The notes beneath the pieces are model-generated. The model saw nothing but the letters and a program-made list of their open reading frames with translations, was not told the DNA's origin and made no database searches. From Eledone cirrhosa (taxonomy: Eukaryota): a DNA stretch of 64,000 bases. Both the position numbers and the translations under genes were made by a program. The first letter of the stretch is position 1; each line of letters opens with the position of its first letter. Shown here piece after piece: positions 15,076-43,310 of this stretch. The stretch covers positions 62,001-126,000 of the forward strand of contig CAXHJY010001158.1 in assembly GCA_964016885.1 (NCBI GenBank). Reading direction: 5' to 3'.

Positions 15076-15097
15076 ATATACATATATATATATATAT

Positions 15098-15153: not shown

Positions 15154-15429
15154 ATCTTCCACTTCAGCCGGTCGCCCTAAAGTGTTGGCTATTCAGTCTA
15201 CTTGAGGCCAGTTGGTGAGGGGGGGTAAAGCTTTCAGTGTGCTACTACCCTCACGGTCAAATAGAAAGGGAGAGGAAGAAAAGTCAGCGTTAATATCGTG
15301 CTACACGTTTGAAAGGTTGGATGACCTTAGAGTTCACCAGGGTGGGGGGTTCTAAAAGTATCTATCTTGGTATTTTATCTTAGAAGTAATCATTACAGAG
15401 TGTACTGGGTGTATTTTAGTGGGCAGTAA

Positions 15430-16260: not shown

Positions 16261-16322
16261 TCCTAACCACTATACTCCTTTCCAAACTCCCACACTCCCA
16301 CTTCTGTACACACCACCTTTAG

Positions 16323-17030: not shown

Positions 17031-17110
17031 GGTCCATGGCTTGGCCTGCTAACCGACGCTATACCCAAGTCGGTCGCCATGCTTTCCAGCATAGAGTTAC
17101 GTCTCTTTAT

Positions 17111-17220
17111 GGTCTGAGTTCAAATCACGCCGAGGTTAACTTTGCCTTTCATCCTTACGGGGTCGATAAAATAAAGCACCAGTAATGTACTGGGGTCGAT
17201 TTAATCGACTTTCCCCTCCT
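17111..17220 (+). mobile_element. tRNA-derived SINE (resembles octopus SINE families)
   Basis: GAGTTCAAATC B-box plus core GTTAACTTTGCCTTTCATCCTTACGGGGTCGATAAAATAAAG..CTGGGGTCGATTTAATCGACT; several copies in the window. Confidence 0.8.
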
Positions 17221-17261
17221 CTGCCAAATGACACACACATGCATGGTTCGGGGGAACCTAC

Positions 17262-17315
<54 letters not shown>

Positions 17316-18194
17316 GTAGGTCACTGGTTGAGTCGGTATTAACCACAGTAACTAAGGTACTCAATACATATTAGATATAGGTGTCTTTCTAATTGCTGGC
17401 CTTGTTCATAAGGTATACACAAGTATGATGTGTGTCTGTTTAACTGTACGTGTGAAAACATCGCGAAATTGCGCCTTTTAATATTTGAATATAAACAGTT
17501 AAAAAATAATTATTTTAGTAATTTTTAAATATCGATAATGTGTATATAAATATTAGAAATCAATTTAATTAGTTCAGTAACATTACTCGGAGTTAAGATA
17601 AACCTTCATTTGAAGAAATTCGAGATTTGACCAAATAAATAGATTATGTGATCAATAAAAAAAATATGTATACGCGCTGTGACGACGGGTTGCAGACAGT
17701 CAGGCATACAGACACATATTTTAAAGCGTGCGACTTTAAAAGTGTTACTCTCTCTCTTTTTAGATAGATAGACTTAATTAAAGCAGTTTCACTCTCTCTA
17801 TATTTCATCAGCTCCCTCTCTCTTAAATTGAAAGATTCATTAAGGCTGAAATAATCTAAACAGTAACATCATTTTTCGCCAGCTCTAGCTTGCGTCCAGA
17901 GATATACACACACATATATATATATATTTTTTGTTATCGAGTTGAGCTTTGCCAAGCATAGAATTCCAAATTTGACCATCTCCACTGAAAATGTTCGTGA
18001 AATAGTCTTTAAGAAGCAATTTAATTTTTTCCAACTGAAACTGTAAGTATTTTAAAATTTATTTCAACATGGTCTTAAAAGATTGTTGGCTTTTTTTAAA
18101 TTCATAACTATTTACTATGAAATATAAATTATTAAATCCAATTTATTTGATAACCATGATTTGATTTTATAATTACCTGAATCACGTTAACATG

Positions 18195-18239
<45 letters not shown>

Positions 18240-18499
18240 GTGTGTGTATATATATATATATATAATAATTGTTTCTACGTTACGCAGTGTATTACTGGTA
18301 CTGTATTTTACGATATTAAATATTAAATATTAACTATTAGATATTAAATATTAAATATTAGATATTAGATATTAAATATTAAATATTAAATATGATATCC
18401 CTGAAATATATATAATGAAATAAATATGGTTTTATAAATGTAATTTCCATTTGTTTAATATCAAATATATATATATATATATATATGTATTTATGTATA

Positions 18500-18551
<52 letters not shown>

Positions 18552-18777
18552 GCAGACACAGACACAGAATATCGTATATATCACACACACACAATTAAGA
18601 CTTGACGTGTTGCAGACAGCCAGACATACAGAGAGATATTTTAAAGCGTGCGACCTTACATGCCTTACTCTTTCTCTTATCAAAAGAGAAAGAGTAATGC
18701 TAACACTTACGTCTACTTCACGCTCTCTTGAACCGTTACAGAAATTGCATCACATCTAATTATAACTTTGTACGTTT

Positions 18778-19171
<394 letters not shown>

Positions 19172-19444
19172 ATAATAATAATAATGAAATGATTGTGTAC
19201 AGTGCTCAGGTGCACTACAACTCATCAAAGGTGCATGTATAGTACATAGAATAATGTACAAATGTCAGGAAAATAAACAGTGTATGAGTCATGATATAAT
19301 AACAATAACAATAATGAAATATTGTGCACTGCCCAGGTGCACCACAACCCATCAAAAAAGTGCATGTACAGTACATAGGGCAATGCACAAACATCAGTAA
19401 AATGAACAGTGCACACATGTGTGCATGTGTATGGAAGGGGCACA

Positions 19445-22210: not shown

Positions 22211-22266
22211 TTTGTACCCTGCTCGCAGTCTATGATGGTGTGTAGAGGGTGGCAGGTTGTTCTGGT

Positions 22267-22419
22267 TTAGTTTCCCAGAGTTGTAGCAGTTTTTACATTG
22301 CCAGTTATTGTGGGTAGATCACACTCAGACCAGCTGGTATCTCTCTTCCACGTTTCACCCGCCTTGACAAACCTCCAGATCTGCCCATCATCACGCAGAC
22401 TGAAACTTTCATCTTGTGC
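22267..22419 (-). pseudogene. Remnant C-terminus of LINE ORF1 (...TATTLGN*)
   Basis: Non-microsatellite part of ORF 22267-22596; overlaps the ORF2 frame by ~50 nt and is truncated at the insertion boundary. Confidence 0.6.
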
Positions 22420-22484
22420 TGTATATATATATATATACACACGTGTGTGTGTATTTATGTATATATATATATATACACACACAC

Positions 22485-22526
<42 letters not shown>

Positions 22527-22641
22527 GTGTGTGTGTGTATATATATTTATATATATATACACACATGTGTGTGTATATATATATATATATATACACGTGT
22601 GTGTGTATTTATATATATATATATATACACACACACGTGTG

Positions 22642-22672
<31 letters not shown>

Positions 22673-22769
22673 GTGTGTGTATATATATATATCTGTCTCT
22701 CTCCCTGTCTCTCACTCTCCCTCTATTCCCCCTCTCTCTCTCTGTCTCTCTCTCCCCCCCCCTCTCTCT

Positions 22770-23050
22770 CTCTAGTAGTAGAGAGAGACAAAGAGAGAGA
22801 GATATAAACGTATAACCCTAACCAAACCCTAACCCAACCCTAACCCCAACCCTAACCCTAACCTAACCCTAACCCATCTCTCTCTCTCTCTCACCCCCTC
22901 TCTCTCTCTCTAGTAGTAGAGAGAGAGACAAAGAGAGAGAGAGATATAAACGTATAACCCTAACCCAACCCTAACCTCTCTCTCTCTCTCTCTCCCCTCT
23001 CTCTCTCTATTCCCCCCTCTCTATTTCCCCCCCCCTCTCTCTCTAGTAGT

Positions 23051-23081
<31 letters not shown>

Positions 23082-23165
23082 TATAAACGTATAACCCTAA
23101 CCCAACCCTAACCCTAACCCAACCCCAACCCTAACCCATCTCTCTCTCTCTCTCTCTCTCTCTCT
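22770..23165 (+). repeat. Compound repeat of (CT)n-AGTAGTAG-(GA)n-TATAAACGTATAA-(CCCTAA)n
   Basis: Three units here and about five in copy B (~55565-56180); contains interstitial telomere-type hexamers. Confidence 0.85.
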
Positions 23166-23309
23166 TTGTTTTTAACATTGTTTTGTTTTTCTTTTCTTTT
23201 CTTATTCAGATGACAAACGGCAGAGGATACAACAGAAGAAAAGAACAAAGATAATTATTATTATTATTACTATTATTATTTGTTTTATTATAATCAAAAT
23301 ATGCTGTTA

Positions 23310-23950
23310 GTTAGATCTGCATTGCGTACATTTTATATAATTTATGCCAGTTCCTTTTCTGCATATCGAACATGGCCATTTCCCTGACGGAATAGAGTTT
23401 TGTCCTCTTTCGTGACACAAAGTACAGCCAGCGGCATCATTGCGGACAGACTTAATCCCGAATTGCACTGACACACTGCCTCGCAATACGGAACACCGCA
23501 CGTCTTTGATCTTCTTCCCGTCGATCAGCCTCCTTGCCATGCTAAGTACACCTGACGTCTAGCTTCTCTCTTAGCGGCGGCTTTATATTCTTCTCTACTC
23601 CCACTAATTTTCCAAGCATTCCATGCTAGCCTTTAGTCTCCAATGGCCCGATCTACCGTGCTGTCCCACCACCATGTCACTCTCTGTCTGGTTGGAACTC
23701 TGATCCAGCCACAAGTTTAATCAGTAGCCTGCAATAAGTTGTCACATAAGAAAATCGAGTTCTCATGTATGTCATACGACTGTGAATCGTCTTCTTTTTC
23801 GTCATACACATATTGAAGGGCTTTCCTAAATTTCTATTTTAGTGAAATCTCTTTTAGCTTCCAGACCTTTCTTTTTTCCACATCTTCCTGTATGTCTCAA
23901 TCATACCTGGAGCTGTCCAACATGACCATTGAAATCCCCTGCTAGCATAA
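23310..23950 (-). mobile_element. Rearranged RTE LINE fragments
   Basis: GKWPCSICRKG..CTQCRS motif and similarity to the RTE pieces at 48620-49220; 23180-23650 is an older duplicate of ~24630-25585. Confidence 0.7.
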
Positions 23951-24739
23951 CGATGTCTCCGTCCTGTCATTGTGGCTGTTTGTAAAAATTGCTTGTAAAT
24001 GAAGTCTTTCTTTTCTTTACCTAGCAGAAGCAATTAACACTAACCCAACTGTAACACTAACCCTAACACTAACTTATGCAGGCCTAGGTAAAGACAAGAA
24101 AGATAAAACAAGGAGTGATGCTTCTTGAATTTTGTGATGCAAGTGTTTTAACCATTTGCAAAACCAACTTCCACAAACCTGCCTCACTGCCGCCTAATAA
24201 CCTACAAATCAGGCAAGCACAGAAGCCGGATTTCTCGGTAGTTAGGCAGCGAGACAGACAGATGGGGTGTGAAGTACCAGGGTGTGCCCCGGGGAGGAAT
24301 GTTTCCCACAGCGTGGGTTGGTTGTTGGTGATGTCTCGGTTATCTTGAGACGGAGTGAGACGTGCAGGAATACTCTCACGGAATCGCCAAATGAGGTTTA
24401 TTTTTCAACATAGTCCCTGGAATGAAACAATGTGGTTATTAAGAAGAATTGAAATTAATGTAAGATTTCACAGATCTATGATCAATCCTTCACAGTCAGC
24501 TTACAAAGTTTTCAGCCAAACCTTGTGTATTTCCAACATTTCAAACCCTATCTAGGACTACATTATCTAATGTACAGTACAGTAGTTAGTATTAGTGGCT
24601 ATCAGACATAGTGTATCTAAATGCAACATTTTTAACATTGTTTTTTTTTTCTTTTCTTTTCTTTTCTTATTCAGATGACAGACGGCAGAGGATACAATAG
24701 AAGAAAAGAACAATGATAATTATTATTATTATTATTGTT

Positions 24740-25139
24740 GTTATTCCTTGAATCTCAGTCATTGATGTTGGTTAACTGGAAAGTCCGTTGGAATGAATAT
24801 CAAGCCACTACCTGCAGCCTCAGATATTCAGGACGTATCGGAGGGTTCTTGCTGTTCCAAGCAAGCATGCCTTTTGAAGCGTTCCAAAAAGCGTGAAGGG
24901 GCCGATTTTCTTTAACCATCCCTGGAAACTTTTGGAGATGGACAAAAAACTGGAACACAATAGACCTGACCTGGTGGTTGTGGACAAAGAAAAAAGATCG
25001 TGTCTGATTGTGGATGTGGCCTGCCCGTTCAACACGAGAGTGCAAGAGAAGGAGAGGGAGAAAATTAACCGATACCAGGACCTAAAGTGGGAGGTGAAAA
25101 GGATTTGGAACTGCCATGAAGTCAAAGTGATCCCGATTG

Positions 25140-25140
<1 letters not shown>
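24740..25140 (+). mobile_element. Restriction-like endonuclease (R2-superclade) non-LTR fragment in an (ATT)n tract
   Basis: HNRPDLVVVDK...LIVDVACP......EKINRYQDL..E...W motif (PD..D RLE); copy B at ~57754-58152. Confidence 0.75.
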
Positions 25141-25180
<40 letters not shown>

Positions 25181-25781
25181 TATTATTTGTTTTATTATAA
25201 TCAAAATATGCTGTTAGTTAGATCTGCATTGTGTACATTTTATATAATTTATGCCAGTTCCTTTTCTACATATCGAACATGGCCATTTCCCTGACGGAAT
25301 AGAGTTTTGTCCTCTTTTCTACTCATCAACACTCATTCGTGACACAAAGTACAGCCAGCGGCATCATTGCGGACAGACTTAATCCTGATTTGCACTGACA
25401 CACTGCCTCGCAATACGGAACACCGCACGTCTTTGATCTTCTTCCCGTCGATCAGCCTCCTTGCCATGCAAAGTACACCTGACGTCTAGCTTCTCTCTTA
25501 GCGGCGGCGGCTGTATATTCTTCTCTACTCCCACTAATTTTCCAAGCATTCCATGCTAGTCTTTAGTCTCCAATGGCCCGATCTACAGTTTCTGTCTCAA
25601 CTCGTCTATGCTTGGTCGTTCCCGCACATTGACATTGCACATCCAACGGAGCATGCTTGCTTCATTTCTCTCCAGCCGTCGCATGTCCTCTGCAGTTGCT
25701 GCCCGTGTCTCACTACCATGCAGCATCGCGCATCTAAACCTGGCCCTTACCCTAACCCCAACCTCTTTGGTTTTCGTTTTC

Positions 25782-26606
25782 TCGACGGCTAGCCGCATTT
25801 CGTGATCCGCCTTTCGATTGCGCTTCCGTCGCGGCAAAAGAATTGCCTTTCCAGACCGGACCGGACCCATGATAGAAGACGTTCGTTACCGTTGGAGCAA
25901 CGCAAAATTACTCCTCGGTTGACGCCATAAACGAACGCCTTCCCGCCTCGCGCCGCCTTCTCCTCGCCGACCCTCGGCCTCGACGATTAGCCACTTTCCG
26001 TCACAGCAGTAGATACGCGTCCGTCGTAATAGCCGTCATTTTAACGCAGGAGAAACGCCTAATTGCCCTGCACCGCGTTTGACGGCGATCTACGACGGCG
26101 ACGATGCGCGCACTCTTCCTTGCTGCGACGAAGGTTTCGGCTTTTCGTCGTGGACCCGGTCAGGTCATGCCGCTGACCTCGCGTTACGGCGACGCGAGAA
26201 GACGTTCGTTACCGCTGGAGCAACGCAAATTACTCCTCGGTTGACGCCAAAAACGAACGCCTCGCGCCGCCGCTTCCTCCTCGGCCTCGACGATTAGCCG
26301 CTTTCCGTCACAGCAGTAGATACGCGTCCGTCGTAATAGCCGTCATTTTAACGCAGGAGAAACGCCTTGACGACGATATACGACGGGTCGACGACGCGCG
26401 CACTCTTTCTGCTGCGACGAAGGTTTTGGCTTTTCGTTGTGGACCCGGTCGGGTCATGCCTCTGACCTCGCGTTGCGTCGCCACCGCCGCGGCGGGCTTG
26501 GGTTTAGCCGTAGCTACCCTCGTTTTGCCAACGGCGACGCGAGAAGACGTTCGTTACCGCTGGAGCAACGCAAATTACTCCTCGGATGAGGCCAAAAACG
26601 AACGCT
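25782..26606 (+). repeat. Orphan IGS/ETS-like block
   Basis: Homologous to the 172-bp subrepeat and leader at 32950-34411, with three copies of GAAGACGTTCGTTACCG.TGGAGCAACGCAAATTACTCCTCGG; no 18S follows. Copy B at ~58799-59631. Confidence 0.8.
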
Positions 26607-26684
26607 GAAGAGATATTGTCCATGGATATCGGGAATTTTACCCGCCCTAGATAGATAGATAGATAGGGATGTATGTATGTATGT

Positions 26685-26734
<50 letters not shown>

Positions 26735-27113
26735 GTATGTATCTTTCTCATTCTCTCTGTATGTATGTATGTATGTATATATATATAATTATATATTTAT
26801 AGACATCCTGAAAGCTTTTTAAATGTCTGAGAGATTGGCTAAATATGTTTTGCAGGTATGACCAGTAAGAGAGAGGTAAGTTATTTCAAAACAATTCTTT
26901 GACCATTATTTTAAGGTACTATCTCAGTGTATTTTTAAATTGACCTCTTGATAGGATGAAATGACCTGTATAATTTTTTTCATATTTAGATGGAATAGAA
27001 GAAAAACAAGAAAAATGAAATGAATTCAAACAGAAAATATACACCAATGCCAATGGAGGTATGATTTCAGTTTAATCTTAACCTAATGACCACTTTACAG
27101 AGTGTACTGGATA

Positions 27114-27196
<83 letters not shown>

Positions 27197-27639
27197 AGGA
27201 AGCTCCAACCGTTAAGGTTGTCTTTCCATTTATTAATATATTGTGTATTTACTCCACTAAACTGTTGAGTGCTTTATATCAGTTATAAAAAAATTTCAGC
27301 TTGTTGAATCCCAAAATAGTTGTTGAAACAGCCACAGCTCAGCCGTCGGGGTCCTGAATATTTATCATATATATATACGTATGAGTGTGTGTGTTTTGAG
27401 AATTAATAATTATATAAACAAGTTTGTAATGAACAATTTATTTCTTATCAAAACTGTATAAACATGATATTATTTACAGTAAGAATAACAATAATAATGA
27501 TGGTTTCTAGTAAAGGTGGAAGGCCAGTAATTTGGGGGAGGGGAAAGTTGATTAAATCGAAGAGAGAAAGAAAGAAGAAACAGAACGGGAAGGAGAGGGG
27601 ATGGCAAGAGGTCCGGTGTCGCAGGAGAGAGGGGAGGGT

Positions 27640-28140
27640 GGTTGAGCTTTGAGTCTAGGGCAAGAGGGCAGAAATGCTGCGCCCCACGGATAAGACGGCA
27701 AAAATATTCTCGCGGACGATGGCCAGAGATACCCAATGCAACAACCACCCAACCTCGCGGTGTTCCCTCCTCAGATGGGCTGCTGACTCTCCGATCTTTT
27801 GGAGGAGCTCGGCAGTACAAGGTCCAAGTACTCCTGGGGTCTCGACGTTGACTGGTGCAGAGAGGAAGTGGCCGGACAATCCTCGGTATTTGTTTATTTT
27901 ACGTTCTTCTGCGAGGTGGGCTGCGATGCCGGGGTTTGTGACCGAAACGACTTGGAAACGAAGTTGTAGGCGGAGATTGTGTCGTAGCTGGTGGTGTCCC
28001 AGATGAGGGACCTACGTCCTTCGAATGGGAAGAGAGTGATTCCGTCGGGGCGCTTGCCATCTCCGGGACCTGTTGGCCCCAGTTGTGATGGGAAGCCAGC
28101 TGCGTCCAGGCTTCTTCTCAATATGTCGTTGACAACGACG
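27640..28140 (-). mobile_element. CRE-like non-LTR retrotransposon 3' fragment (RLE domain)
   Basis: DGKRPDGITLFP...SLIWDTT..DT, then frameshifted VETPGVLG...IGE......E.REVGWL...SLAIVREN; copy B at ~60661-61161. Confidence 0.75.
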
Positions 28141-28439
28141 TGTATCTATTCAATAATTATTTGAATATTGAAATTTTAGGTTTAACTACCTTTTAAACCA
28201 AATACATTAAGAAAGGCATGACCAACACCACATCATTTTTATTTCTATTTTGAAAGTAGGTTTATAAGTATTAAATTTCAGTAGATTCTTATATCCTTCA
28301 TGGTGGTCTGGTGGGAGATACGAGAGATGGTGGAGGTTCTGGTCTGGGGTTCAATCCTGCTCAGGAGATACTCTAAGGGGGTTCATACTAAACTTCTTCA
28401 GTGTTTCTTATCTCTAGAGACAAATATATATACATAAGG

Positions 28440-28575
28440 TAATCTGGTAAAGTTGTTAGAACATCACATAGAATTCTTTGTAGTATTTTTTCCAGTTCTT
28501 CAATCTGAGTTCAACTTTACTTTTCTTCCATTCGGGGTTGATAATAACGTACCAGTCAAATACTAGGGGTTAATT
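28440..28575 (+). mobile_element. Degenerate SINE
   Basis: CTGAGTTCAACTTTACTTTTC..CCATTCGGGGTTGATAA...GTACCAGT resembles the SINE core. Confidence 0.55.
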
Positions 28576-28687
28576 CTTCCTCTATATCTCTTTCTCACTC
28601 TCTGTCTGTTTTATTAAGACCTGGAGAGGTGATGTACTCTACCAGGTTTTATAATGAGTGATGGGGTCATACCTGCCTGCTACACCT

Positions 28688-29222
28688 CTGTGTACTAAGT
28701 GTAGCATATTATATCCTTGTTCAGGGCCTTCCTGACATTACTGTGTACTAAGGGTAGCATTTTATATCCTTGTTCAGGGCCATCTTAACATTGCTGTGTA
28801 CTAAGTGTAGCATATTATATCCTTGTTCGGGGCCTTCCTGACATTAGTGTGTACTGAGTGTAGATTTTAACATCCTTGTTCTGGGCCTTCCTAACATTAC
28901 TGTGTACTGAGTGTAGATTTTAACATCTTTGTTCAGGGCCTTCCTAACATTGCTGTGTACTAGGTGTAGCATATTATATCCTTGTTCAGGGCCCTCCTGA
29001 CATTACTGTGTACTAAGTGTAGATTTTGATATCCTTGTTCAGGGCCATCCTAACATTACTGTGTACTAAGAGTAGCATTATATATCCTTGTTCAGGGCCT
29101 TCCTAACATTACTGTGTACTAAATGTAGATTTGGATATCCTTGTTCAGAGCCTTCCTTACATTACTGTGTACTAAGTGTAGCATTTCATATACTTGTTCT
29201 GGGCCTTCCTAACGTTACTGTG
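28688..29222 (+). repeat. 53-bp minisatellite (about 10 units)
   Basis: Unit CTGTGTACTAAGTGTAGCATATTATATCCTTGTTCAGGGCCTTCCTAACATTA; copy B (~61709-62031) is 212 bp (4 units) shorter. Confidence 0.9.
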
Positions 29223-30000
29223 GAAATAGTAGTTTATATCCAATATGTAATATAGATATGGATTCTACAGGACTAAAACTCATTAATATGAGGGGTATTA
29301 GTAGATTATATGCCATATTTAATAGAGAAATGGCTTCTACAAGACTAAAACTCATTAATATGAGGGGTATTACAGTTTATATGCCATATTTAATACAGAA
29401 ATGGCTTCTAAAGGACTAGAACTCTTTAAATTGAATAAAATAGTAGTATATATCCTATGTTTAATACAGAAATGCCTTCTAAAGGACTCATTAATATGAG
29501 GGTATTAGTAGATTATATAACATATTTAATACAGAAATGGCTTTTAAATTCAGGGACTCGTTAATTTGATGGAAATAGTAGTGTCTATGCAATATTTAAT
29601 ACAGAAATAGCTTCTACAGGACTAAAACTAATTAATATGAGGGGTATTAGTAGTATATGTGCCATATTTAATACAGAGATGGCTTCTAAATGGAGGTATC
29701 TCATTAATTCGATTGAAATGGTAGTGTATATGCAATATTTAATACAGAAATAGCTTCTACAAGAATAAAACTCATTAATATGAAGGTTATTATTACATTA
29801 TATGCCATATTTAATACAGAAATCGGTTCTAAAGGACTAGAACTCTTTAATTCAAATCAAATAGTAGTATAAAGCAATATTTACTACAGAAATGGCTTCT
29901 ACAAGACTAAAAATCCTTAATATGAGGGGTATTGTTAGATTATATACCATATTTAATACAGAAATGGCTTCTAAATGAAGAAATCTCTTTAATTCGATAG
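29223..30000 (+). repeat. Diverged AT-rich ~70-bp tandem repeat
   Basis: Recurrent ATTTAATACAGAAATGGCTTCTA; copy B at ~62032-62810. Confidence 0.85.
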
Positions 30001-30653
30001 TAATAGTAATAATAATAATAGTAATAGTAATAATACAGCCAATTTTCCACGCAATACTTTTAGTTAGCACCCCGAACGCATAATTGGGAATATAATCACT
30101 TATTTCCTAATGTTTGTTGAGTGAGTTGGGAAAAAAAACTTGGGAAATATATTTTCAGGGTCTCAAAATCTTAAAGAGAAAAAAAAGTCCTGTGGAAGGT
30201 AGCAAAACAATTAGGAAGAAAATGGTTTGAAGTTGGTTGGTGAGTATAAGATTACAGTATCTTGTTGATTTCTATAAAGTTTACTTTTAACTGAATTGGT
30301 AAAAATGGATAAATTAGAAGACACAATATAATAACTAATATTGTCTTCTAAAACAGGGAATAAAAATATGTTGGTGTATTGGGGGGGGGGGGGGTAAACA
30401 TGTGAGTTAATGGGAATGTTTTTGTTTGTTTTTATTGAAACATATTCAATCTACAGATAGGTTGTTATAGTTATTTAGTCTCGGGTCTGCCATTATCTGC
30501 AGATTTATAATTGAGGGGTGTTCCAGGTGTGACCACCCTACATTATTCCTAGAGATTGTTACTCCTTCATTCTTCAGTCATCTTGGTCTTCTTATGAGAT
30601 GGTGGTGTAGTCTTATTTATTGTTAAGGTTATGGTCTTCCTTTGTCCACACTC

Positions 30654-30691
<38 letters not shown>

Positions 30692-30879
30692 AAAGGCTTC
30701 CTTCTCTGGAAAAAGATGATTTAATATTCACAACCATCTGTCTAATTGTTTTCTGATGAGAATAAAGTTAATCTTGCTTGTATGTCTACCTGATCAAATG
30801 ACTGGCTGATATCTTGAAGTCATTTACACCACAGAACTGTAGGAGTCTTGATCCCTCAAGCCATACCTCTAGCCATCAT

Positions 30880-31730
30880 GTACTCCAAAAGAGTCTCACC
30901 TTGGTGCTACTCAACATGTCCATTAAATTTAGCAGCAAGGATGCCCTCTTCTTAGTGAGAGACAACTACAAGAGAGGTTCTTAGAGAAGAATAAGCCACT
31001 ATAGTTAACTTTTGTTGACATAGAGAACCCCGATCTGTCATTCTGGTGGTCCTTAAGGAAACTAGGTGTAGGGGAATGGCTTGTGAGGACAGTGCAAGCT
31101 ATGTACAAGGGTGCTGTCAGTAAAGTGAGAGGAGGAATTCCAGAAACAAAGTAGGTGTACATCAGGGTTCGGTCCTCAGTCCGCTCTTGTTCATTATAGT
31201 CCTCCCTCCCTCCCTCCCTCCCTCCCTCCCTCCCTCCAAGCCATAACAGAGGAGGAGTAGTTTAAGACTGGATGCCCATGGGAACTTCTCTATGCTGACG
31301 ATCTGGTTCTTATAGCAGAATCAGTAGAGGAGCTAGCTAGAGAATAAATTCTGGCTATGGAAACAGCAGTAGTTGGAATCAAGAAGACTGAGAGTGAACC
31401 TAGCTAAGACAAAAGTGTTTATAAGTAGAAGAGAGGACAAAACTCTGATTCTGTCAGGGAAATGGCCATGTTCGATATGTAGGAAAGGAGTTGGCATAAA
31501 TTCTATGAAATGTAGTACGCAATGCAGATCTTGGCTACACAAGAGATGTAGTGGGATAGCAGGAAAACTGACTGACAGGTAGGGAGAAATACGTATGCAG
31601 TAGATGTACAGGGAAATTTGACAGAGATTGCAGTGATAGACACATTTTTCAAATGCAGGTGGGATCTATAGAGGGAGTTGATAGCTTCTGATACCTAGGT
31701 GATCAGATTAGTAAGGGAGGAGGGTGATAT
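30880..31730 (+). mobile_element. Decayed RTE-clade LINE (RT core plus Cys motif)
   Basis: GVHQGSVLSPLLF and YADDL motifs, then VNLAKTK..GKWPCSICRKGVG.NS..C..C..W.HKRC; copy B at ~63695-64000. Confidence 0.85.
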
Positions 31731-32059
31731 AAAATATATTGTTATCATGACTGTCTTTATTATTTAAATTACCTCTGTCTATTTACAGATTTTACAGAGT
31801 GTACTGGGTGCTTTTATGATGGGAGCAGCAACTCTATACGATTTTACAGAGTGTACTTGGTGCTTTTATCATGGCACATGGCAGCAGCAGCAGCAGCAGC
31901 AACTACGATTTTACAGAGTGTACTTGGTGCTTTTTACTCTGACATCAGCACTGAGGAAGTTGTCATATTTTCAGCTAAATTAATGAGTAGAAAAACCAAG
32001 TTTCTGCTACAAAAAATTCTCAGATTCAAGGGAGACATTCAGTTTAAGTATGGTATACT

Positions 32060-32240
32060 GTCACTAAGGCAGCAAATTGGCAGAGTCGCTAGAATATCAG
32101 ATAGCATTCTTTACATTATTTGTTTCAGCTCTCTGTTCTCTCAATTCAAATCCTGCTCAGGTCAACTTTGCCTTTCATCCATACAAAATAGATTAATAAA
32201 AGTACCAGTGTATTACTGGGGTCAATTCTTCTTCTAACTC
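32060..32240 (+). mobile_element. Degenerate SINE
   Basis: TTCAAATCC..GGTCAACTTTGCCTTTCATCC..AAGTACCAGTG..TACTGGGGTCAAT. Confidence 0.65.
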
Positions 32241-32258
32241 TTCTGCACTTCCATTCTC

Positions 32259-32299
<41 letters not shown>

Positions 32300-32858
32300 G
32301 CTTCTTTAGAACACATCTGCTGTATTCAGACCTGGAGCGGAGATGGGCTCCACCAAGTTTTAAAAATTGCCCTTTAAGCGCTGTATGTCAATATGGTGCC
32401 CCTATGATTCCCTCCCTCAGGAGTTATGGGACCATAGATACTGTCAATTGTAAAGAATAACAGAGATATTCAGTGCTAGTGTGGTGTTCTGTCAGTTGTG
32501 GAGATTGATGAATCTAAACAGAAATATCAACAGCACTTTTCATTTCTGAGTAACACATTTGTTACCAAGTGCTGCATGGCTGGAATGAAAATCAGTGCTG
32601 TGAAAACCAAGACATTCATCCTCTCAAGGAAGCTTGTGCAGTGCACTCTACATGTAAATGGAGTCCCACTGAAGCAGGTAGAAAAGTTCATGTATCTCGA
32701 AGCTGTGTTCACGAGTGATGACAGAGACGGCAAAGGCACAACACACAACAGAAGAAAAGAACAATGACAATTATTATTATTATTATTATTATTATTTGTT
32801 TTATTAGTTTTATTATAATAAAAATTGTGCTGTTAGTTTGCTTGCTATACCATCATGT

Positions 32859-32952
32859 ACCCTAACCCTAAACCTAACCCCAACTCCAACTCTGACCCTA
32901 AACCTAACCCCAACCCTAACCCCAACCCTAACCCTAACCCTAACCCTAACCC
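32859..32952 (+). repeat. Interstitial telomeric repeat (CCCTAA)n with variants
   Basis: Degenerate, then perfect, CCCTAA hexamers fused directly to the first 172-bp subrepeat. Confidence 0.85.
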
Positions 32953-34053
32953 ACGATAGAAGACGTTCGTTACCGCTGGAGCAACGCAAATTACTCCTCG
33001 GTTGACGCCAAAAACGAACGCCTTCTCGACGGCTAGCCGCATTTCGTGATCCGCCTTTCGATTGCGCTTCCGTCGCGGAAAAAGAATTGCCTTTATAGGC
33101 CGCCGCCGCCGCCCGACCGGACCCACGATAGAAGACGTTCGTTACCGCTGGAGCAACGCAAATTACTCCTCGGTTGACGCCAAAAACGAACGCCTTCTCG
33201 ACGGCTAGCCGCATTTCGTGATCCGCCTTTCGATTGCGCTTCCGTCGCGGAAAAAGAATTGCCTTTATAGGCCGCCGCCGCCCGACCGGACCCACGATAG
33301 AAGACGTTCGTTACCGCTGGAGCAACGCAAATTACTCCTCGGTTGACGCCAAAAACGAACGCCTTCTCGACGGCTAGCCGCATTTCGTGATCCGCCTTTC
33401 GATTGCGCTTCCGTCGCGGAAAAAGAATTGCCTTTATAGGCCGCCGCCGCCGCCCGACCGGACCCACGATAGAAGACGTTCGTTACCGCTGGAGCAACGC
33501 AAATTACTCCTCGGTTGACGCCAAAAACGAACGCCTTCTCGACGGCTAGCCGCATTTCGTGATCCGCCTTTCGATTGCGCTTCCGTCGCGGAAAAAGAAT
33601 TGCCTTTATAGGCCGCCGCCGCCGCCCGACCGGACCCACGATAGAAGACGTTCGTTACCGCTGGAGCAACGCAAATTACTCCTCGGTTGACGCCAAAAAC
33701 GAACGCCTTCTCGACGGCTAGCCGCATTTCGTGATCCGCCTTTCGATTGCGCTTCCGTCGCGGAAAAAGAATTGCCTTTATAGGCCGCCGCCGCCGCCCG
33801 ACCGGACCCACGATAGAAGACGTTCGTTACCGCTGGAGCAACGCAAATTACTCCTCGGTTGACGCCAAAAACGAACGCCTTCTCGACGGCTAGCCGCATT
33901 TCGTGATCCGCCTTTCGATTGCGCTTCCGTCGCGGAAAAAGAATTGCCTTTATAGGCCGCCGCCGCCGCCCGACCGGACCCACGATAGAAGACGTTCGTT
34001 ACCGCTGGAGCAACGCAAATTACTCCTCGGTTGACGCCAAAAACGAACGCCTT
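32950..34053 (+). promoter_or_regulatory. 172-bp IGS-like subrepeat array (6 full units plus 1 partial); candidate Pol I spacer promoters/enhancers
   Basis: Units start at about 32950, 33122, 33291, 33463, 33635, 33807 and 33979. Each full unit has TTTATAGGCCG; the array ends ~360 bp before the 18S start. The repeat is seen directly; the promoter role is inferred. Confidence 0.55.
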
Positions 34054-34411
34054 CCGGTTCGGGCGACGTAAAAGTCTGTAGCCTTTTCGCCGATCCTCGA
34101 CGATTATCCGCCTTCCGAACAACCGCCTTTCCGCCGTCACAGCAGTAGGTACTCGTCCGTCGTAATAGCCGTCATTTTAATGCAGGAGAAACGCCTAAAT
34201 GCACTGCGATTAACGACGATCTACGACGCGCTTACTCTTCCTTGCTGCGACGAAGGTTTCGTTCGGCTTTTCGTCGTGGACCCGGTCAGGTCATGCCGCT
34301 GATCTCGCGTTGCGTCGTTACCGCTGGAGCAACGCAAATTACTCCTCGTTTAACGCCAACATCGAACGCGCTTCGGTTCTCGGTCGTCGTTGTTTTGTTT
34401 CGTGCGGAAGA
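34054..34411 (+). other. 5'-ETS-like leader
   Basis: CpG-rich segment between the subrepeats and the 18S 5' end; carries another copy of the subrepeat core at ~34316-34350. Confidence 0.55.
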
Positions 34412-34597
34412 TACCTGGGTGATCCTGCCAGTAGTCATATGCTTGTCTCAAAGCTTAAGCCATGCAAGTGGAAGTTCATGCCGTAAACGAAAATGGTGAA
34501 ACCGCGAATGGCTCAGGAACCGGATCTAATCCTCGGGACCGTATTCCTCACCGCGAGGAGAGGATAACTGTGGCAATTCTAGAGCTAATACATGCAA
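34412..34597 (+). pseudogene. 18S rRNA 5' fragment (about nt 1-185)
   Basis: TACCTGGGTGATCCTGCCAGTAGTCATATGCTTGTCTCAAAG.TTAAGCCATGCA ... GTGAAACCGCGAATGGCTCA ... GGATAACTGTGGCAATTCTAGAGCTAATACATGC matches the canonical eukaryotic SSU start. Confidence 0.93.
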
Positions 34598-37500
34598 TTG
34601 AGATCGGAGAGGGAGCGATCCGTCTGCTTGATTCCGATAACGAACGAGACATTCGTATCCGAAAGAACGTTTGTCTGGAAACTGGTGCAGTCAGTGAGTC
34701 GAAAAAAAAATATCTCGGTGGTAGTAGCAAATATTCGAACGAGACATTCGTATGCGAAAGAACGTTTGTCGGTGGTAGTAGCAAATATTCGAACGAGACA
34801 TTCGTATGCGAAAGAACGTTTGTCTGGAAGTGGCGATCCATGCCCGGTGGATAGTTGGTTCCGGGTTTTACTATGATTGTTGCAAAACAAAAACTTAAAG
34901 GGATTGACAGAATTTGCGATTCCGGAGAGAGGGCGATCCGTCTGCTTGATTCCGATAACGAACGAGACATTCGTATCCGAAAGAACGTTTGTCTGGAAAC
35001 TGGTGAGTCAGTGAGTCGAAAAAAAAATATCTCGGTGGTAGTAGCAAATATTCGAACGAGACATTCGTATGCGAAAGAACGTTTGTCGGTGGTAGTAGCA
35101 AATATTCGAACGAGACATTCGTATGCGAAAGAACGTTTGTCTGGAAGTGGCGATCCATGCCCGGTGGATAGTTGGTTCCGGGTTTTACTATGATTGTTGC
35201 AAAACAGAAACTTAAAGGGATTGACAGAATTTGCGATTACGGAGAGGGGGCGATCCGTCTGCTTGATTCCGATAACGAACGAGACATTCGTATCCGAAAG
35301 AACGTTTGTCTGGAAACTGGTGAGTCAGTGAGTCGAAAAAAAAATATCTCGGTGGTAGTGGCAAATATTCGAACGAGACATTCGTATGCGAAAGAACGTT
35401 TGTCGGTGGTAGTAGCAAATATTCGAACGAGACATTCGTATGCGAAAGAACGTTTGTCTGGAAGTGGCGATCCATGCCCGGTGGATAGTTGGTTCCGGGT
35501 TTTACTATGATTGTTGCAAAACAGAAACTTAAAGGGATTGACAGAATTTGCGATTCCGGAGAGGGGGCGATCCGTCTGCTTGATTCCGATAACGAACGAG
35601 ACATTCGTATCCGAAAGAACGTTTGTCTGGAAACTGGTGAGTCAGTGAGTCGAAAAAAAAAATATCTCGGTGGTAGTAGCAAATATTCGAACGAGACATT
35701 CGTATGCGAAAGAACGTTTGTCGGTGGTAGTAGCAAATATTCGAACGAGACATTCGTATGCGAAAGAACGTTTGTCGGTGGTAGTAGCAAATATTCGAAC
35801 GAGACATTCGTATGCGAAAGAACGTTTGTCGGTGGTAGTAGCAAATATTCGAACGAGACATTCGTATGCGAAAGAACGTTTGTCTGGAAGTGGCGATCCA
35901 TGCTCGGTGGATAGTTGGTTCCGGGTTTTACTATGATTGTTGCAAAACAGAAACTTAAAGGGATTGACAGAATTTGCGATTCCGGAGAGGGGGCGATCCG
36001 TCTGCTTGATTCCGATAACGAACGAGACATTCGTATCCGAAAGAACGTTTGTCTGGAAACTGGTGAGTCAGTGAGTCGAAAAAAAAATATCTCGGTGGTA
36101 GTAGCAAATATTCGAACGAGACATTCGTATGCGAAAGAACGTTTGTCGGTGGTAGTAGCAAATATTCGAACGAGACATTCGTATGCGAAAGAACGTTTGT
36201 CTGGAAGTGGCGATCCATGCCCGGTGGATAGTTGGTTCCGGGTTTTACTATGATTGTTGCAAAACAAAAACTTAAAGGGATTGACAGAATTTGCGATTCC
36301 GGAGAGAGGGCGATCCGTCTGCTTGATTCCGATAACGAACGAGACATTCGTATCCGAAAGAACGTTTGTCTGGAAACTGGTGAGTCAGTGAGTCGAAAAA
36401 AAAAATATCTCGGTGGTAGTAGCAAATATTCGAACGAGACATTCGTATGCGAAAGAACGTTTGTCGGTGGTAGTAGCAAATATTCGAACGAGACATTCGT
36501 ATGCGAAAGAACGTTTGTCTGGAAGTGGCGATCCATGCTCGGTGGATAGTTGGTTCCGGGTTTTACTATGATTGTTGCAATACAGAAACTTAAAGGGATT
36601 GACAGAATTTGCGATTCCGGAGAGGGGGCGATCCGTCTGCTTGATTCCGATAACGAACGAGACATTCGTATCCGAAAGAACGTTTGTCTGGAAACTGGTG
36701 AGTCAGTGAGTCGAAAAAAAAATATCTCGGTGGTAGTAGCAAATATTCGAACGAGACATTCGTATGCGAAAGAACGTTTGTCGGTGGTAGTAGCAAATAT
36801 TCGAACGAGACATTCGTATGCGAAAGAACGTTTGTCTGGAAGTGGCGATCCATGCCCGGTGGATGGTTGGTTCCGGGTTTTACTATGATTGTTGCAAAAC
36901 AGAAACTTAAAGGGATTGACAGAATTTGCGATTCCGGAGAGGGGGCGATCCGTCTGCTTGATTCCGATAACGAACGAGACATTCGTATCCGAAAGAACGT
37001 TTGTCTGGAAACTGGTGAGTCGAAAAAAAAATATCTCGGTGGTAGTAGCAAATATTCGTATGCGAAAGAAAAGATCTCGGTGGTAGTAGCAAATATTCGA
37101 ACGAGACATTCGTAGGCGAAAGAAAAATATCTCGGTGGTAGTAGCAAATATTCGAACGAGACATTCGTATGCGAAAGAACGTTTGTCGGTGGTAGTAGCA
37201 AATATTCGAACGAGACATTCGTATGCGAAAGAACGTTTGTCGGTGGTAGTAGCAAATATTCGAACGAGACATTCGTATGCGAAAGAACGTTTGTCTGGAA
37301 GTGGCGATCCATGCCCGGTGGATAGTTGGTTCCGGGTTTTACTATGATTGTTGCAAAACAGAAACTTAAAGGGATTGACAGAATTTGCGATTCCGGAGAG
37401 AGGGCGATCCGTCTGCTTGATTCCGATAACGAACGAGACATTCGTATCCGAAAGAACGTTTGTCTGGAAACTGGTGCAGTCAGTGAGTCGAAAAAAAAAT

Positions 37501-40500
37501 ATCTCGGTGGTAGTAGCAAATATTCGAACGAGACATTCGTATGCGAAAGAACGTTTGTCGGTGGTAGTAGCAAATATTCGAACGAGACATTCGTATGCGA
37601 AAGAACGTTTGTCTGGAAGTGGCGATCCATGCTCGGTGGATAGTTGGTTCCGGGTTTTACTATGATTGTTGCAAAACAGAAACTTAAAGGGATTGACAGA
37701 ATTTGCGATTCCGGAGAGGGGGCGATCCGTCTGCTTGATTCCGATAACGAACGAGACATTCGTATCCGAAAGAACGTTTGTCTGGAAACTGGTGAGTCAG
37801 TGAGTCGAAAAAAAAATATCTCGGTGGTAGTAGCAAATATTCGAACGAGACATTCGTATGCGAAAGAACGTTTGTCGGTGGTAGTAGCAAATATTCGAAC
37901 GAGACATTCGTATGCGAAAGAACGTTTGTCTGGAAGTGGCGATCCATGCCCGGTGGATAGTTGGTTCCGGGTTTTACTATGATTGTTGCAAAACAGAAAC
38001 TTAAAGGGATTGACAGAATTTGCGATTCCGGAGAGGGGGCGATCCGTCTGCTTGATTCCGATAACGAACGAGACATTCGTATCCGAAAGAACGTTTGTCT
38101 GGAAACTGGTGAGTCAGTGAGTCGAAAAAAAAATATCTCGGTGGTAGTAGCAAATATTCGAACGAGACATTCGTATGCGAAAGAACGTTTGTCGGTGGTA
38201 GTAGCAAATATTCGAACGAGACATTCGTATGCGAAAGAACGTTTGTCTGGAAGTGGCGATCCATGCCCGGTGGATAGTTGGTTCCGGGTTTTACTATGAT
38301 TGTTGCAAAACAAAAACTTAAAGGGATTGACAGAATTTGCGATTCCGGAGAGAGGGCGATCCGTCTGCTTGATTCCGATAACGAACGAGACATTCGTATC
38401 CGAAAGAACGTTTGTCTGGAAACTGGTGAGTCAGTGAGTCGAAAAAAAAAATATCTCGGTGGTAGTAGCAAATATTCGAACGAGACATTCGTATGCGAAA
38501 GAACGTTTGTCGGTGGTAGTAGCAAATATTCGAACGAGACATTCGTATGCGAAAGAACGTTTGTCTGGAAGTGGCGATCCATGCTCGGTGGATAGTTGGT
38601 TCCGGGTTTTACTATGATTGTTGCAAAACAGAAACTTAAAGGGATTGACAGAATTTGCGATTCCGGAGAGGGGGCGATCCGTCTGCTTGATTCCGATAAC
38701 GAACGAGACATTCGTATCCGAAAGAACGTTTGTCTGGAAACTGGTGAGTCAGTGAGTCGAAAAAAAAATATCTCGGTGGTAGTAGCAAATATTCGAACGA
38801 GACATTCGTATGCGAAAGAACGTTTGTCGGTGGTAGTAGCAAATATTCGAACGAGACATTCGTATGCGAAAGAACGTTTGTCTGGAAGTGGCGATCCATG
38901 CCCGGTGGATAGTTGGTTCCGGGTTTTACTATGATTGTTGCAAAACAAAAACTTAAAGGGATTGACAGAATTTGCGATTCCGGAGAGAGGGCGATCCGTC
39001 TGCTTGATTCCGATAACGAACGAGACATTCGTATCCGAAAGAACGTTTGTCTGGAAACTGGTGAGTCAGTGAGTCGAAAAAAAAAATATCTCGGTGGTAG
39101 TAGCAAATATTCGAACGAGACATTCGTATGCGAAAGAACGTTTGTCGGTGGTAGTAGCAAATATTCGAACGAGACATTCGTATGCGAAAGAACGTTTGTC
39201 TGGAAGTGGCGATCCATGCTCGGTGGATAGTTGGTTCCGGGTTTTACTATGATTGTTGCAAAACAGAAACTTAAAGGGATTGACAGAATTTGCGATTCCG
39301 GAGAGGGGGCGATCCGTCTGCTTGATTCCGATAACGAACGAGACATTCGTATCCGAAAGAACGTTTGTCTGGAAACTGGTGAGTCAGTGAGTCGAAAAAA
39401 AAATATCTCGGTGGTAGTAGCAAATATTCGAACGAGACATTCGTATGCGAAAGAACGTTTGTCGGTGGTAGTAGCAAATATTCGAACGAGACATTCGTAT
39501 GCGAAAGAACGTTTGTCTGGAAGTGGCGATCCATGCCCGGTGGATAGTTGGTTCCGGGTTTTACTATGATTGTTGCAAAACAGAAACTTAAAGGGATTGA
39601 CAGAATTTGCGATTCCGGAGAGGGGGCGATCCGTCTGCTTGATTCCGATAACGAACGAGACATTCGTATCCGAAAGAACGTTTGTCTGGAAACTGGTGAG
39701 TCGAAAAAAAAATATCTCGGTGGTAGTAGCAAATATTCGTATGCGAAAGAAAAGATCTCGGTGGTAGTAGCAAATATTCGAACGAGACATTCGTAGGCGA
39801 AAGAAAAATATCTCGGTGGTAGTAGCAAATATTCGAACGAGACATTCGTATGCGAAAGAACGTTTGTCGGTGGTAGTAGCAAATATTCGAACGAGACATT
39901 CGTATGCGAAAGAACGTTTGTCTGGAAGTGGCGATCCATGCCCGGTGGATAGTTGGTTCCGGGTTTTACTATGATTGTTGCAAAACAGAAACTTAAAGGG
40001 ATTGACAGAATTTGCGATTCCGGAGAGGGGGCGATCCGTCTGCTTGATTCCGATAACGAACGAGACATTCGTATCCGAAAGAACGTTTGTCTGGAAACTG
40101 GTGAGTCAGTGAGTCGAAAAAAAAATATCTCGGTGGTAGTAGCAAATATTCGAACGAGACATTCGTATTCGAAAGAACGTTTGTCTGGAAGTTGCGATCC
40201 ATGCCCGGTGGATAGTTGGTTCCGGGCTTTACTATGATTGTTGCAAAACAGAAACTTAAAGGGATTGACAGAATTTGCGATTCCGGAGAGGGGGCGATCC
40301 GTCTGCTTGATTTCGATAACGAACGAGACATTCGTATCCGAAAGAACGTTTGTCTGGAAACTGGTGAGTCAGTGAGTCGAAAAAAAAAATATCTCGGTGG
40401 TAGTAGCAAATATTCGAACGAGACATTCGTATGCGAAAGAACGTTTGTCGGTGGTAGTAGCAAATATTCGAACGAGACATTCGTATGCGAAAGAACGTTT

Positions 40501-41266
40501 GTCGGTGGTAGTAGCAAATATTCGAACGAGACATTCGTATGCGAAAGAACGTTTGTCTGGAAGTGGCGATCCATGCCCGGTGGATAGTTGGTTCCGGGTT
40601 TTACTATGATTGTTGCAAAACAGAAACTTAAAGGGATTGACAGAATTTGCGATTCCAGAGAGAGGGCGATCCGTCTGCTTGATTCCGATAACGAACGAGA
40701 CATTCGTATCCGAAAGAACGTTTGTCTGGAAACTGGTGAGTCAGTGAGTCGAAAAAAAAATATCTCGGTGGTAGTAGCAAATATTCGAACGAGACATTCG
40801 TATGCGAAAGAACGTTTGTCTGGAAGTGGCGATCCATGCTCGGTGGATAGTTGGTTCCGGGTTTTACTATGATTGTTGCAAAACAGAAACTTAAAGGGAT
40901 TGACAGAATTTGCGATTCCGGAGAGAGGGCGATCCGTCTGCTTGATTCCGATAACGAACGAGACATTCGTATCCGAAAGAACGTTTGTCTGGAAACTGGT
41001 GAGTCAGTGAGTCGAAAAAAAAATATCTCGGTGGTAGTAGCAAATATTCGTATGCGAAAGAAAAGATCTCGGTGGTAGTAGCAAATATTCGAACGAGACA
41101 TTCGTATGCGAAAGAAAAATATCTCGGTGGTAGTAGCAAATATTCGAACGAGACATTCGTATTCGAAAGAACGTTTGTCTGGAAGTTGCGATCCATGCCC
41201 GGTGGATAGTTGGTTCCGGGCTTTACTATGATTGTTGCAAAACAGAAACTTAAAGGAATTGACAGA
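34598..41266 (+). repeat. rRNA-derived chimeric satellite, copy B (complete, ~20 monomers)
   Basis: Monomers of 263-459 bp; about 47 copies of the 28S motif GGTGGTAGTAGCAAATATTC by manual count; bounded by the 18S 5' and 28S 3' fragments. Confidence 0.93.
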
Positions 41267-41649
41267 ATTTTCGAATCGACATCAACTCGGCTACGGCTAT
41301 CCCGTCGAGTACGAGAGTATCGCGGGATCAGAGCAACGGTTTGCTAGGCTGCCTCTGAGCGATAACGGCTGAACGCCTCCTCTAAGCCGGAACCCTAGCC
41401 GGACCCGAGTTGTTTTTCGACAAGCGTCTCGACCTTCTTAAGGCCCATGCCTTAGTTTGGCGATTGCCGTCCGTTCGCCGACGGCGGCAGCGTCAGCGGA
41501 AATGCCATTCTGTGACGACTACGACGATTCGTCGTCGTCGTCGTCCATTCGATTTCCTGAAAGAGATAGAGACTAAAGTGATCAAATTGTTCGGAGTTAC
41601 GTGCTTAGTAGAGCAGCTACCACACTGCAATCTATTGAGAGTTTTCTGA
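41267..41649 (+). pseudogene. Degenerate 28S rRNA 3'-terminal fragment, copy B
   Basis: Same sequence as 4593-4975 at offset 36674. Confidence 0.85.
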
Positions 41650-43310
41650 CGAACGATACAATCCGCCCACGTGGCGCCAGAAAGGGAGAAGAAAAGAAAA
41701 GTTAGACGCCGCCGATCGATCGGTTCGTTGTTTTACGTGTACACAGCTTGTGTGTGTGTCTGTATGTGATACAAGCCGCCTATCCGTCTTCCAAGTAAGT
41801 TTTGTGTGTAGACTGCGGAAAGAAATCCAATCCGCCGTCTAGGCGGTTCTGCCGCCGACCCATACTTTTGCGAGTCGCTCCCGGGAAAGACAGGCGGCAA
41901 GACGGCGTGTATACACGACGCCTTCCGTCTTCCGCCTCGAACCCGGGCAAACGTTCCTTTATTCGTCCACGCCTTCCCGCTTCGATCGCGAGAAAGTAAT
42001 CAATCTGTTTTGTGTGTGTGTCTGTGTGTGATACAAATTTGTTTTCTTAATTTGATAACCATGAATTGTTTCAACACCGGCCCTTTTAAGGGCCACTTAT
42101 ATTTTCAATAATCAGTTTAAATGGGTTGCACCGTAGCCACTTGGTAATACACTGCAAATCTCCCGTCAATCTATGAAGGTTTTGTAGTAGATTAGATCAA
42201 AACACAATCAGCAAGACAGTAATGGAATGAATAATATAAACATTTGTTTATAATTAAAGCCTTAAGATGTCCCTCCCTCCCTCCCTCCCTTCCTCCCTTC
42301 CTTCCTTCCTTCCTTCCTTCCTTACGATATACACTTTAATAACATTGAAACTTATTTAATAAGTTTAAATTTTAAACACTTTTTATTCAGACGTACCGCG
42401 ATAAGTAACTAGATATGTTCTAACGAATAATCCGCGATGTGGCGAGGATTACCGCGATAGGAAATTAGATACGTTCCAAAGAAATATCCGCGAAAAGTGA
42501 ACCGCGATATAGCGGGTTCACCAGCCAGTGTATTACTGGTACTTTATTTTATCGACCCCCATAAGGATGAAAGGCAAAGTTAACTGTGCAATAACAAAGG
42601 GAGATAACCTCGTCTTTTTTTTTTTACGGAGTTATTTCCCTTTAAATTTTATCTATTACTTATGATGATACAATTTAATCAGTTCTTAGCTGTCGAGACA
42701 CTGCATCCTTTAAAACCTCCATGGAACAAGCTACCTGCAACAGTTGTTAGCTGTCGAGACACTGCATCTTTTAAAACCTCCATGGAACAAACTACCTGCA
42801 TCAGTTGTTAGGGTCTGAGTTCAAATCACGCCGAGGAGGTTAACTTTGCCTTTCATCCTTACGGGGTCGGTCGGAAAACGAACCATTCCCGGTTCGCTTT
42901 CGAAGCGGGTTTCCGAAAACAGCGCTTCTCTCGACCGGGCCCGTCGTCCGCTCGGCGGTGGTTTTCATCGTCCCAGGCACGGCTAACAGGCGGAGACGGG
43001 ACAAACGCGCGTGTTCCTTTTTTTATCAGCCGCAGCGCCGTTCGTATATATGCTTAGGTTGTTTTTTTTTTAAATATCCTAAGTTAAGTTGGGGCTAAGT
43101 TAAGTTGGGGCTAAGTTAAGTTGAGGTTAAGTTGAGTTGGGGTTAAGTTAAGTGGGGGTTAAGTTAAGCTGGGGTTAAGTTAAGTTGAGGTTAAGTCAAG
43201 TTGGGGTTAAGTCAAGTTGGGGTTAAGTTAAGTTGGGGTTAAGTTAGGTTGGGGTTAAGTTAGGTTGGGGTTAAGTTAAGTTGGGGTTAAGTTAGGTTGC
43301 GGTTAAGTTA

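Follow-up and report, generated by a model that had tools for sequence, protein, structure and literature searches.

What becomes of a ribosomal DNA (rDNA) unit whose genes are lost while its two ends persist? A 64,000-nucleotide stretch of the Eledone cirrhosa genome, hereafter the window (assembly GCA_964016885.1, contig CAXHJY010001158.1, positions 62,001 to 126,000 of the forward strand), raises this question. It contains an rDNA-like cassette in which a satellite of ribosomal RNA (rRNA) fragments stands between an 18S 5′ end and a 28S 3′ end. An initial annotation proposed that the cassette retains the outer frame of an RNA polymerase I (Pol I) transcription unit around a polymer of rRNA motifs. 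Comparison with the genome's own 45S units bears out the mosaic but not the frame. The cassette probably derives, without a promoter, from a decayed rDNA locus and would now be a passenger in a macrosatellite with units of ~38 kb.

An rRNA mosaic between two rDNA ends

The 3.0-Gb genome contains full-length 45S units, with an 18S gene of 2.87 kb. Three units with an insertion at the R2 site (contigs C12, C4, and C25) and one uninserted unit (C12:25.166 Mb) served as the parent for comparison. Against this parent, the order of parts and the sense orientation first described both hold. A telomere-type tract is followed by 172-bp repeats and a leader derived from the 5′ external transcribed spacer (ETS), 18S nucleotides 1–191, 20 satellite monomers, a 28S 3′ end with deletions, and a spacer remnant. 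All rDNA parts lie on the rRNA sense strand. The degenerate (CCCTAA)n tract (32859..32952, + strand) meets the ETS-derived DNA through a common ACCC and is present upstream of all six junctions scanned. The 172-bp repeat, taken from 5′ ETS subrepeats, occurs in 6.4 copies (32949..34054, +) and carries 4.5% substitutions; other units have 4–7 copies, and one has 12. The condensed 5′ ETS (34055..34411, +) comprises an ETS segment, another ETS repeat core, and the last 44 nt before the 18S, and omits ~830 nt. Overall, the ETS-derived DNA (32949–34411) diverges by 4.5–7%, with deletions.

The 18S piece (34412..34604, +; nt 1 to ~191) is continuous with those 44 nt of ETS. It starts at the position first assigned to it, but it is not exact, as had been claimed, since it carries T8G, T60G, C112T, C187T, and two 2-nt indels. 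The satellite (34605..41270, +) leads to the 28S 3′ end (41279..41666, +, with an approximate end point), which was correctly recognized but extends slightly beyond the proposed limit of 41649; rDNA-derived sequence continues to ~42036. This 28S piece is 8% substituted and has deletions of 26, 33, and ~18 nt, and the missing letters are present in raw reads of the true 28S. A remnant of the true unit's 3′ spacer (41729..42036, +) ends short of the first spacer promoter. The cassette lacks intact 18S, 5.8S, and 28S in order. The initial annotation saw no 5.8S, internal transcribed spacer, or intact gene. Indeed, no 5.8S was found in the window, nor on contigs C28 and C1185 among the 29 matches listed from 40 candidates scored. 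However, internal transcribed spacer 1 (ITS1) is present, about three times per monomer. The sequence TATATAGGG was found neither in the window nor in the array stretches examined.

The monomer of an rDNA-derived satellite is usually one contiguous spacer or gene segment. That of the cassette instead combines at least six separate donor segments that are not colinear with the gene order. Monomers are arranged head to tail and measure 263–480 bp, typically 317. Each consists, in order, of 18S 575–592, 18S 2042–2080, ITS1 289–307, ~30 unassigned nucleotides, a 54-bp subrepeat of 28S 2082–2115 plus an ITS1 variant (one to five copies), 28S 1395–1412, and 18S 1843–1900. The ITS1 contribution is a 19-nt exact piece (289–307) together with one-base variants, and an 18S 573–592 piece occurs at both ends of the mosaic. 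The first monomer has seven exact matches of at least 12 nt to the sense strand of the pre-rRNA and none to the antisense strand, whereas 60 resampled sequences averaged 0.35 such matches, with two at most. In 18-nt windows, ~80% of the 317-nt monomer maps to sense pre-rRNA (260 or 249 bases at thresholds of 15 or 16 matches) and none to antisense. These matches support the proposed satellite of rRNA pieces and its derivation from rDNA as a multi-fragment 18S and 28S mosaic. An 18S 431–449 source for the 30 unassigned nucleotides and a separate 18S 1976 piece were rejected because they did not rise above chance or could be accounted for by two substitutions. Likewise, the long minus-strand open frames in the satellite were set aside as by-products of the repeat whose frame moves with the A run. 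The satellite joint had no match in metagenome contigs.

Promoter region and array context

Whether the cassette retains a Pol I frame depends on where transcription of the true unit begins. In the true C12 unit, the element TATTATATAGGG occurs in 11 spacer copies and one gene copy, the last lying ~2,160 nt 5′ of the 18S. For stick insects, a TATATAGGGGGT motif, repeated in the spacer, has been put forward as a spacer promoter, and repeats within the ETS are also reported (PMC2590618). Judging from the motif and its spacer copies, TATTATATAGGG is the probable Pol I start site. The 172-bp repeats of the cassette match, at 90–97%, subrepeats that lie 170–920 nt 3′ of the last TATTATATAGGG in the true unit. 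Because this places them downstream of the probable start, they belong to the ETS and not to the intergenic spacer, to which they had been ascribed. The cassette itself starts ~200 nt inside the ETS, right after the (CCCTAA)n tract. When 406 kb of array DNA was compared by blastn (word 7, E≤1) with the true gene promoter and spacer promoter regions, neither gave a match, which leaves the proposed Pol I frame unsupported. A 29-nt gene-promoter pattern occurs 18 times genome-wide and never on the cassette-bearing contigs. With the promoter placed by motif in this way, the cassette appears promoterless.

The true units also bear on how copy numbers can be read. The R2 target site of the 28S carries a 1.16–1.24-kb insertion in all three full-length rDNA units first sampled (L024:7970-9210 on contig C12, with matching sites in the C4 and C25 units). 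An exact uninserted site was found only once in the assembly, from which the working rDNA array is therefore probably missing, unless it has been collapsed there. For this reason, 59 cassettes were not set against 18 promoters as a copy-number comparison. The insertion is possibly a non-autonomous R2 derivative, and an Rfam search found no ribozyme in it. On many chromosomes (contigs C1, C2, C3, C4, C12, and C25), rDNA units of full or nearly full length lie scattered, alone or in small groups.

The cassette is far from the two-copy unit it was first taken for. The exact 18S/satellite junction occurs 59 times on seven contigs (43 on C28, seven on C178, five on C1185, and one each on C18, C398, C760, and C1204). 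The C28 junctions lie between 124.72 and 126.45 Mb, on one strand, with a median spacing of 37.8 kb. One monomer joint has 813 exact copies, and the first 100 listed all adjoin junctions. In the window, a preceding copy, noted from the outset, comprises the end of another satellite and its 28S 3′ piece (1..5025, +), with 24 monomers in the full contig. Its spacing from the cassette defines one macro-unit of 36,674 bp (4596..41269, +). The arrays examined contain 4–24 monomers and 4–12 ETS repeats, in unit-specific monomer patterns. Copies are ~99.9% alike, with ~1 mismatch per kb, and as multi-kilobase tandem units of high identity they form a macrosatellite. Only ~1/4 of each unit is rDNA-derived; ~28 kb of unrelated DNA moves along with it. 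Between its gaps, the C28 array spans at least 1.78 Mb. Long telomere-repeat tracts occur just inside the gap that ends it (C28 ~126,472,200–126,473,600), and the array may be subtelomeric or misjoined.

An assembly artefact, or a chimera of rRNA-derived reads, is very unlikely. The C28 array has 200-N gaps on both sides, which make its size a lower bound and its placement uncertain. However, an artefact would have to produce 59 exact junction copies on seven contigs with unit-specific monomer patterns. Moreover, raw restriction-site-associated DNA reads that carry the same species label but were produced by another study (X23, 2026) cover the satellite at a depth of ~100 and contain the common alleles. 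Runs from the first study, possibly the source of the assembly, were left out as support. No RNA run was listed among the runs that contain the sequence, which speaks neither for nor against transcription. Runs labelled as organisms B to F contained 24–55% of the words (three of the five were compared; shares below 0.2 were left out). X4 has near letter-for-letter cassette sequence at a depth of two although its own 28S differs, as does that of X5, and the cassette sequence in both is probably carry-over DNA. X6 contains identical pieces at higher depth. Its four unlike flanks that were checked start at or beside GATC, as in a Hi-C library, and so are not biological variants; the X6 match may reflect either a close relative or carry-over.

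Origin and possible roles of the cassette

The favoured account of the mosaic is short-patch rearrangement, at the DNA level, in a decaying tandem locus. A stray rDNA unit would have broken ~200 nt into the ETS and so lost its promoter, and the telomere-type tract would have been added or fused there. As the joints suggest, repeated short-range template switches or end-joinings in tandem rDNA may then have converted the 18S-to-28S core into one ~350-nt, all-sense mosaic. Edge monomers and length variation show that slippage or unequal exchange then multiplied this mosaic in place, giving 4–24 monomers with the 54-bp inner repeat. The arrays also show a last step, in which the whole unit and its unrelated debris underwent recent amplification or homogenization to at least 59 copies, ~99.9% alike.

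Several features of the arrays speak for this sequence of events. In all seven arrays examined, the first monomer retains the true 18S GGGAGC and the last retains AAAGGAATTGAC, whereas inner monomers have derived letters; in one array, the ancestral letter stands in the first monomer too. Ancestral letters at the edges and derived letters inside show growth in place from one mosaic. Two of the six internal joints that could be tested overlap exactly, one by 5 nt (null frequency 0.007) and the other by 10 nt (null frequency 0.0001); two further joints could not be anchored. Ten cassette copies could be followed from their 172-bp repeats as far as the 28S piece, and two of them are broken. In one C28 unit, a deletion at an A run has removed the leader together with the 18S 5′ end and most of the satellite; in the C18 copy, the 28S end is truncated. 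These two events indicate that rearrangement continues at the DNA level and that the frame can be lost. Additionally, the macro-unit contains two more rDNA fragments in the cassette's orientation, as expected of a decayed tandem locus. One is a separate 28S 5′-region fragment of ~nt 690–890 (42874..43080, +), and the other a second 5′ ETS fragment (58780..59630, +) that shares with the cassette leader differences from the modern unit.

Most likely, no functional rRNA-like product comes from the cassette, which would persist by array turnover. Comparison of copies gave 7 mismatches over 6,862 bases of frame and 65 over 72,139 bases of non-rDNA sequence (matches below 95% identity or 80% length were excluded). 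The frame is therefore conserved no better than the neighbouring repeat debris, a comparison of low power. Some observations weigh against an inert, DNA-level derivative. With ~0.1% divergence among copies, selection could hardly be detected, both frame ends are retained in most units, and a homogenized 1.8-Mb array could have been kept for some reason. Four of the six joints lack exact overlap and have gaps of 1–18 letters. The all-sense orientation of the assignable pieces is also predicted by an RNA-templated origin. Finally, the start site is a putative one, placed by the motif and its spacer copies.

The RNA-templated alternative also treats the cassette as inert. A non-LTR (non-long-terminal-repeat) reverse transcriptase such as that of R2 would have jumped between pre-rRNA fragments, and the chimeric complementary DNA would have been inserted and then amplified. 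This has a small but real chance of being correct. It would explain why all pieces are sense, why several joints lack homology, and why the cassette contains nothing from outside the interval that separates the gene promoter from the first spacer promoter. It also fits with the insertions at the R2 target site, and R2 template jumps onto other RNAs are reported (PMC3414825). However, deletion and duplication in a head-to-tail array preserve orientation as well, and a DNA-level deletion of like style is present in the array. The cassette includes DNA 2 kb past the 28S end, and its 3′ end is fused to another element and shows, by inspection, no poly(A) or simple-repeat tail. Target-site duplication was checked by inspection only, and the copies are tandem with common flanks, not dispersed. 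Short-patch rearrangement of DNA remains the favoured origin.

Other explanations would give the array a role. Read-through, or a cryptic start in the amplified ETS repeats, could produce a 3–10-kb polymer of rRNA motifs that binds ribosome-assembly factors or small RNAs, which is unlikely. The parts retain sense orientation and 5′-to-3′ frame order, and an ETS core element is amplified 4–12 times before the cassette. Furthermore, the 172-bp unit reads TTTATAGG where the true ETS reads TTTTCAGA, a slight drift toward the start motif, and a histone-type stem-loop lies 400 nt beyond the 28S end. Against such a transcript stand the missing promoter homology and a monomer fold no better than that of shuffled sequences (z −1.0). 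Enrichment for the conserved rRNA core is not significant (five of eight pieces, P ~0.10; four of six on a stricter list, P 0.11), as judged with a conservation profile built on those metagenome rDNA loci that reach at least 3 kb (34 of 80). The stem-loop lies in a 73-nt piece of a dispersed, histone H4 3′-end-derived palindromic element (42035..42107, +) from which the sequence downstream of the stem-loop is missing, and a functional histone-type 3′ end was thus set aside as a terminator.

Alternatively, the array may act as DNA. It would then be a natural pseudo-nucleolar organizer region (pseudo-NOR), or a heterochromatic or pairing block, and would bind chromatin proteins of the rDNA but remain untranscribed; this is distinctly improbable. 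Synthetic pseudo-NORs without promoters or rRNA coding sequence recruit the Pol I machinery when megabase arrays bind UBF (PMC4973289), and the array spans at least 1.78 Mb. The rDNA-derived parts show no excess CpG decay (18 substitutions in 363 CpG columns, compared with 105 in 1,544 columns overall). However, octopus repeats are described as poorly methylated in general (PMC9476566), which makes the missing decay unspecific. The rDNA-derived share of each unit is small, and the true spacer-promoter repeats, which are the usual enhancer-type elements, are nearly absent. An HMG_box_5 (UBF) search gave no match in the genome, nor in controls, and so carries no weight either way. It is doubtful, though conceivable, that the locus is a naturally evolved rDNA decoy. 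As a promoterless megabase locus, perhaps near the true rDNA in copy number, it might recruit nucleolar factors as DNA, or its read-through RNA of 18S, 28S, and ITS1 motifs might titrate ribosome-assembly or Pol I factors.

The remainder of the macro-unit consists of a 196-bp palindromic satellite, microsatellites, and repeat debris, besides the two rDNA fragments. The 196-bp satellite has long inverted blocks, a higher-order period of ~1.6 kb, and CCAAT and ATGCTAAAT motifs (window 43310–47930 and 6620–11880). A longer array of it lies on C18 (6.746–6.760 Mb), beside a longer version (460 nt, 91%) of the 28S 5′-region fragment (C18 ~6,746,300–6,746,750) that may preserve the unit in an older form. 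The second ETS fragment follows a short degenerate CCCTAA-like run (window 58750–58790), and a 16-bp G-rich telomere-like repeat, opposite in sense to the cassette's C-rich tract, follows the isolated 28S fragment (window 43080–43310). In the dispersed palindromic element, two histone H4 3′ ends stand back to back, each with its stem-loop intact. The element is dense around the C18 cassette (4.9–12.6 Mb) and just beyond the C28 array (126.58–126.91 Mb) and also occurs in L072, L073, L075, and L077.

Relation to known systems and significance

Satellites derived from rDNA and decayed rDNA are already known, and the cassette is a form of the former with an unusual build. The tomato rDNA-derived satellite, as outlined in PMC2679016, is similar in that a degenerate rDNA array was polymerized by recombination and one sub-element was amplified into a satellite. 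There, however, an intergenic spacer subrepeat was amplified and the coding sequence eliminated, whereas the cassette has a non-colinear mosaic of 18S, 28S, and ITS1 between 18S 5′ and 28S 3′ ends. Human displaced rDNA pseudogenes (PMC5381670) likewise represent units outside the functional array that decay into junk. They are near-full-length or scattered strings, while the cassette is rearranged, internally amplified, and re-homogenized in at least 59 copies.

The array resembles pseudo-NORs in being megabase-sized, rDNA-related, and promoterless. The pseudo-NORs of PMC4973289 are synthetic UBF-binding arrays with demonstrated recruitment, whereas the cassette array, at most a candidate for such recruitment, mostly lacks spacer repeats. 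Short interspersed nuclear elements (SINEs) of the SINE28 type that bear rDNA and the short internally deleted elements (SIDEs) of R2 share with the cassette short rRNA fragments or internally deleted units with their ends kept. Yet these retro-copies are either dispersed or inserted at specific sites and carry a 3′ tail or a ribozyme (PMC10946416 and PMC3414825), in contrast to the tandem, tailless cassette with its 28 kb of unrelated DNA. A preprint on the octopus ribosome (PMC13321053) concerns a different feature.

The initial annotation knew of no multi-fragment 18S and 28S chimera held within rDNA borders. This stands: a literature search of titles and abstract openings, with few subscription journals, found neither a multi-donor 18S/ITS1/28S monomer between rDNA ends nor such an array in a cephalopod, and a prior description is possible. 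If inert, the cassette would provide an unusually clear record of the birth of a satellite, in which comparison with the rDNA of the host reveals the donors and joints, the ancestral monomers at the edges, and amplification at two levels. In practice, rDNA fluorescence in situ hybridization, copy-number estimates, and amplicon studies in this species can be misled by the ~800–1,000 monomer copies, which repeat conserved 18S and 28S motifs. Should the array prove to be transcribed or nucleolar, it would offer a natural parallel to the synthetic pseudo-NOR.

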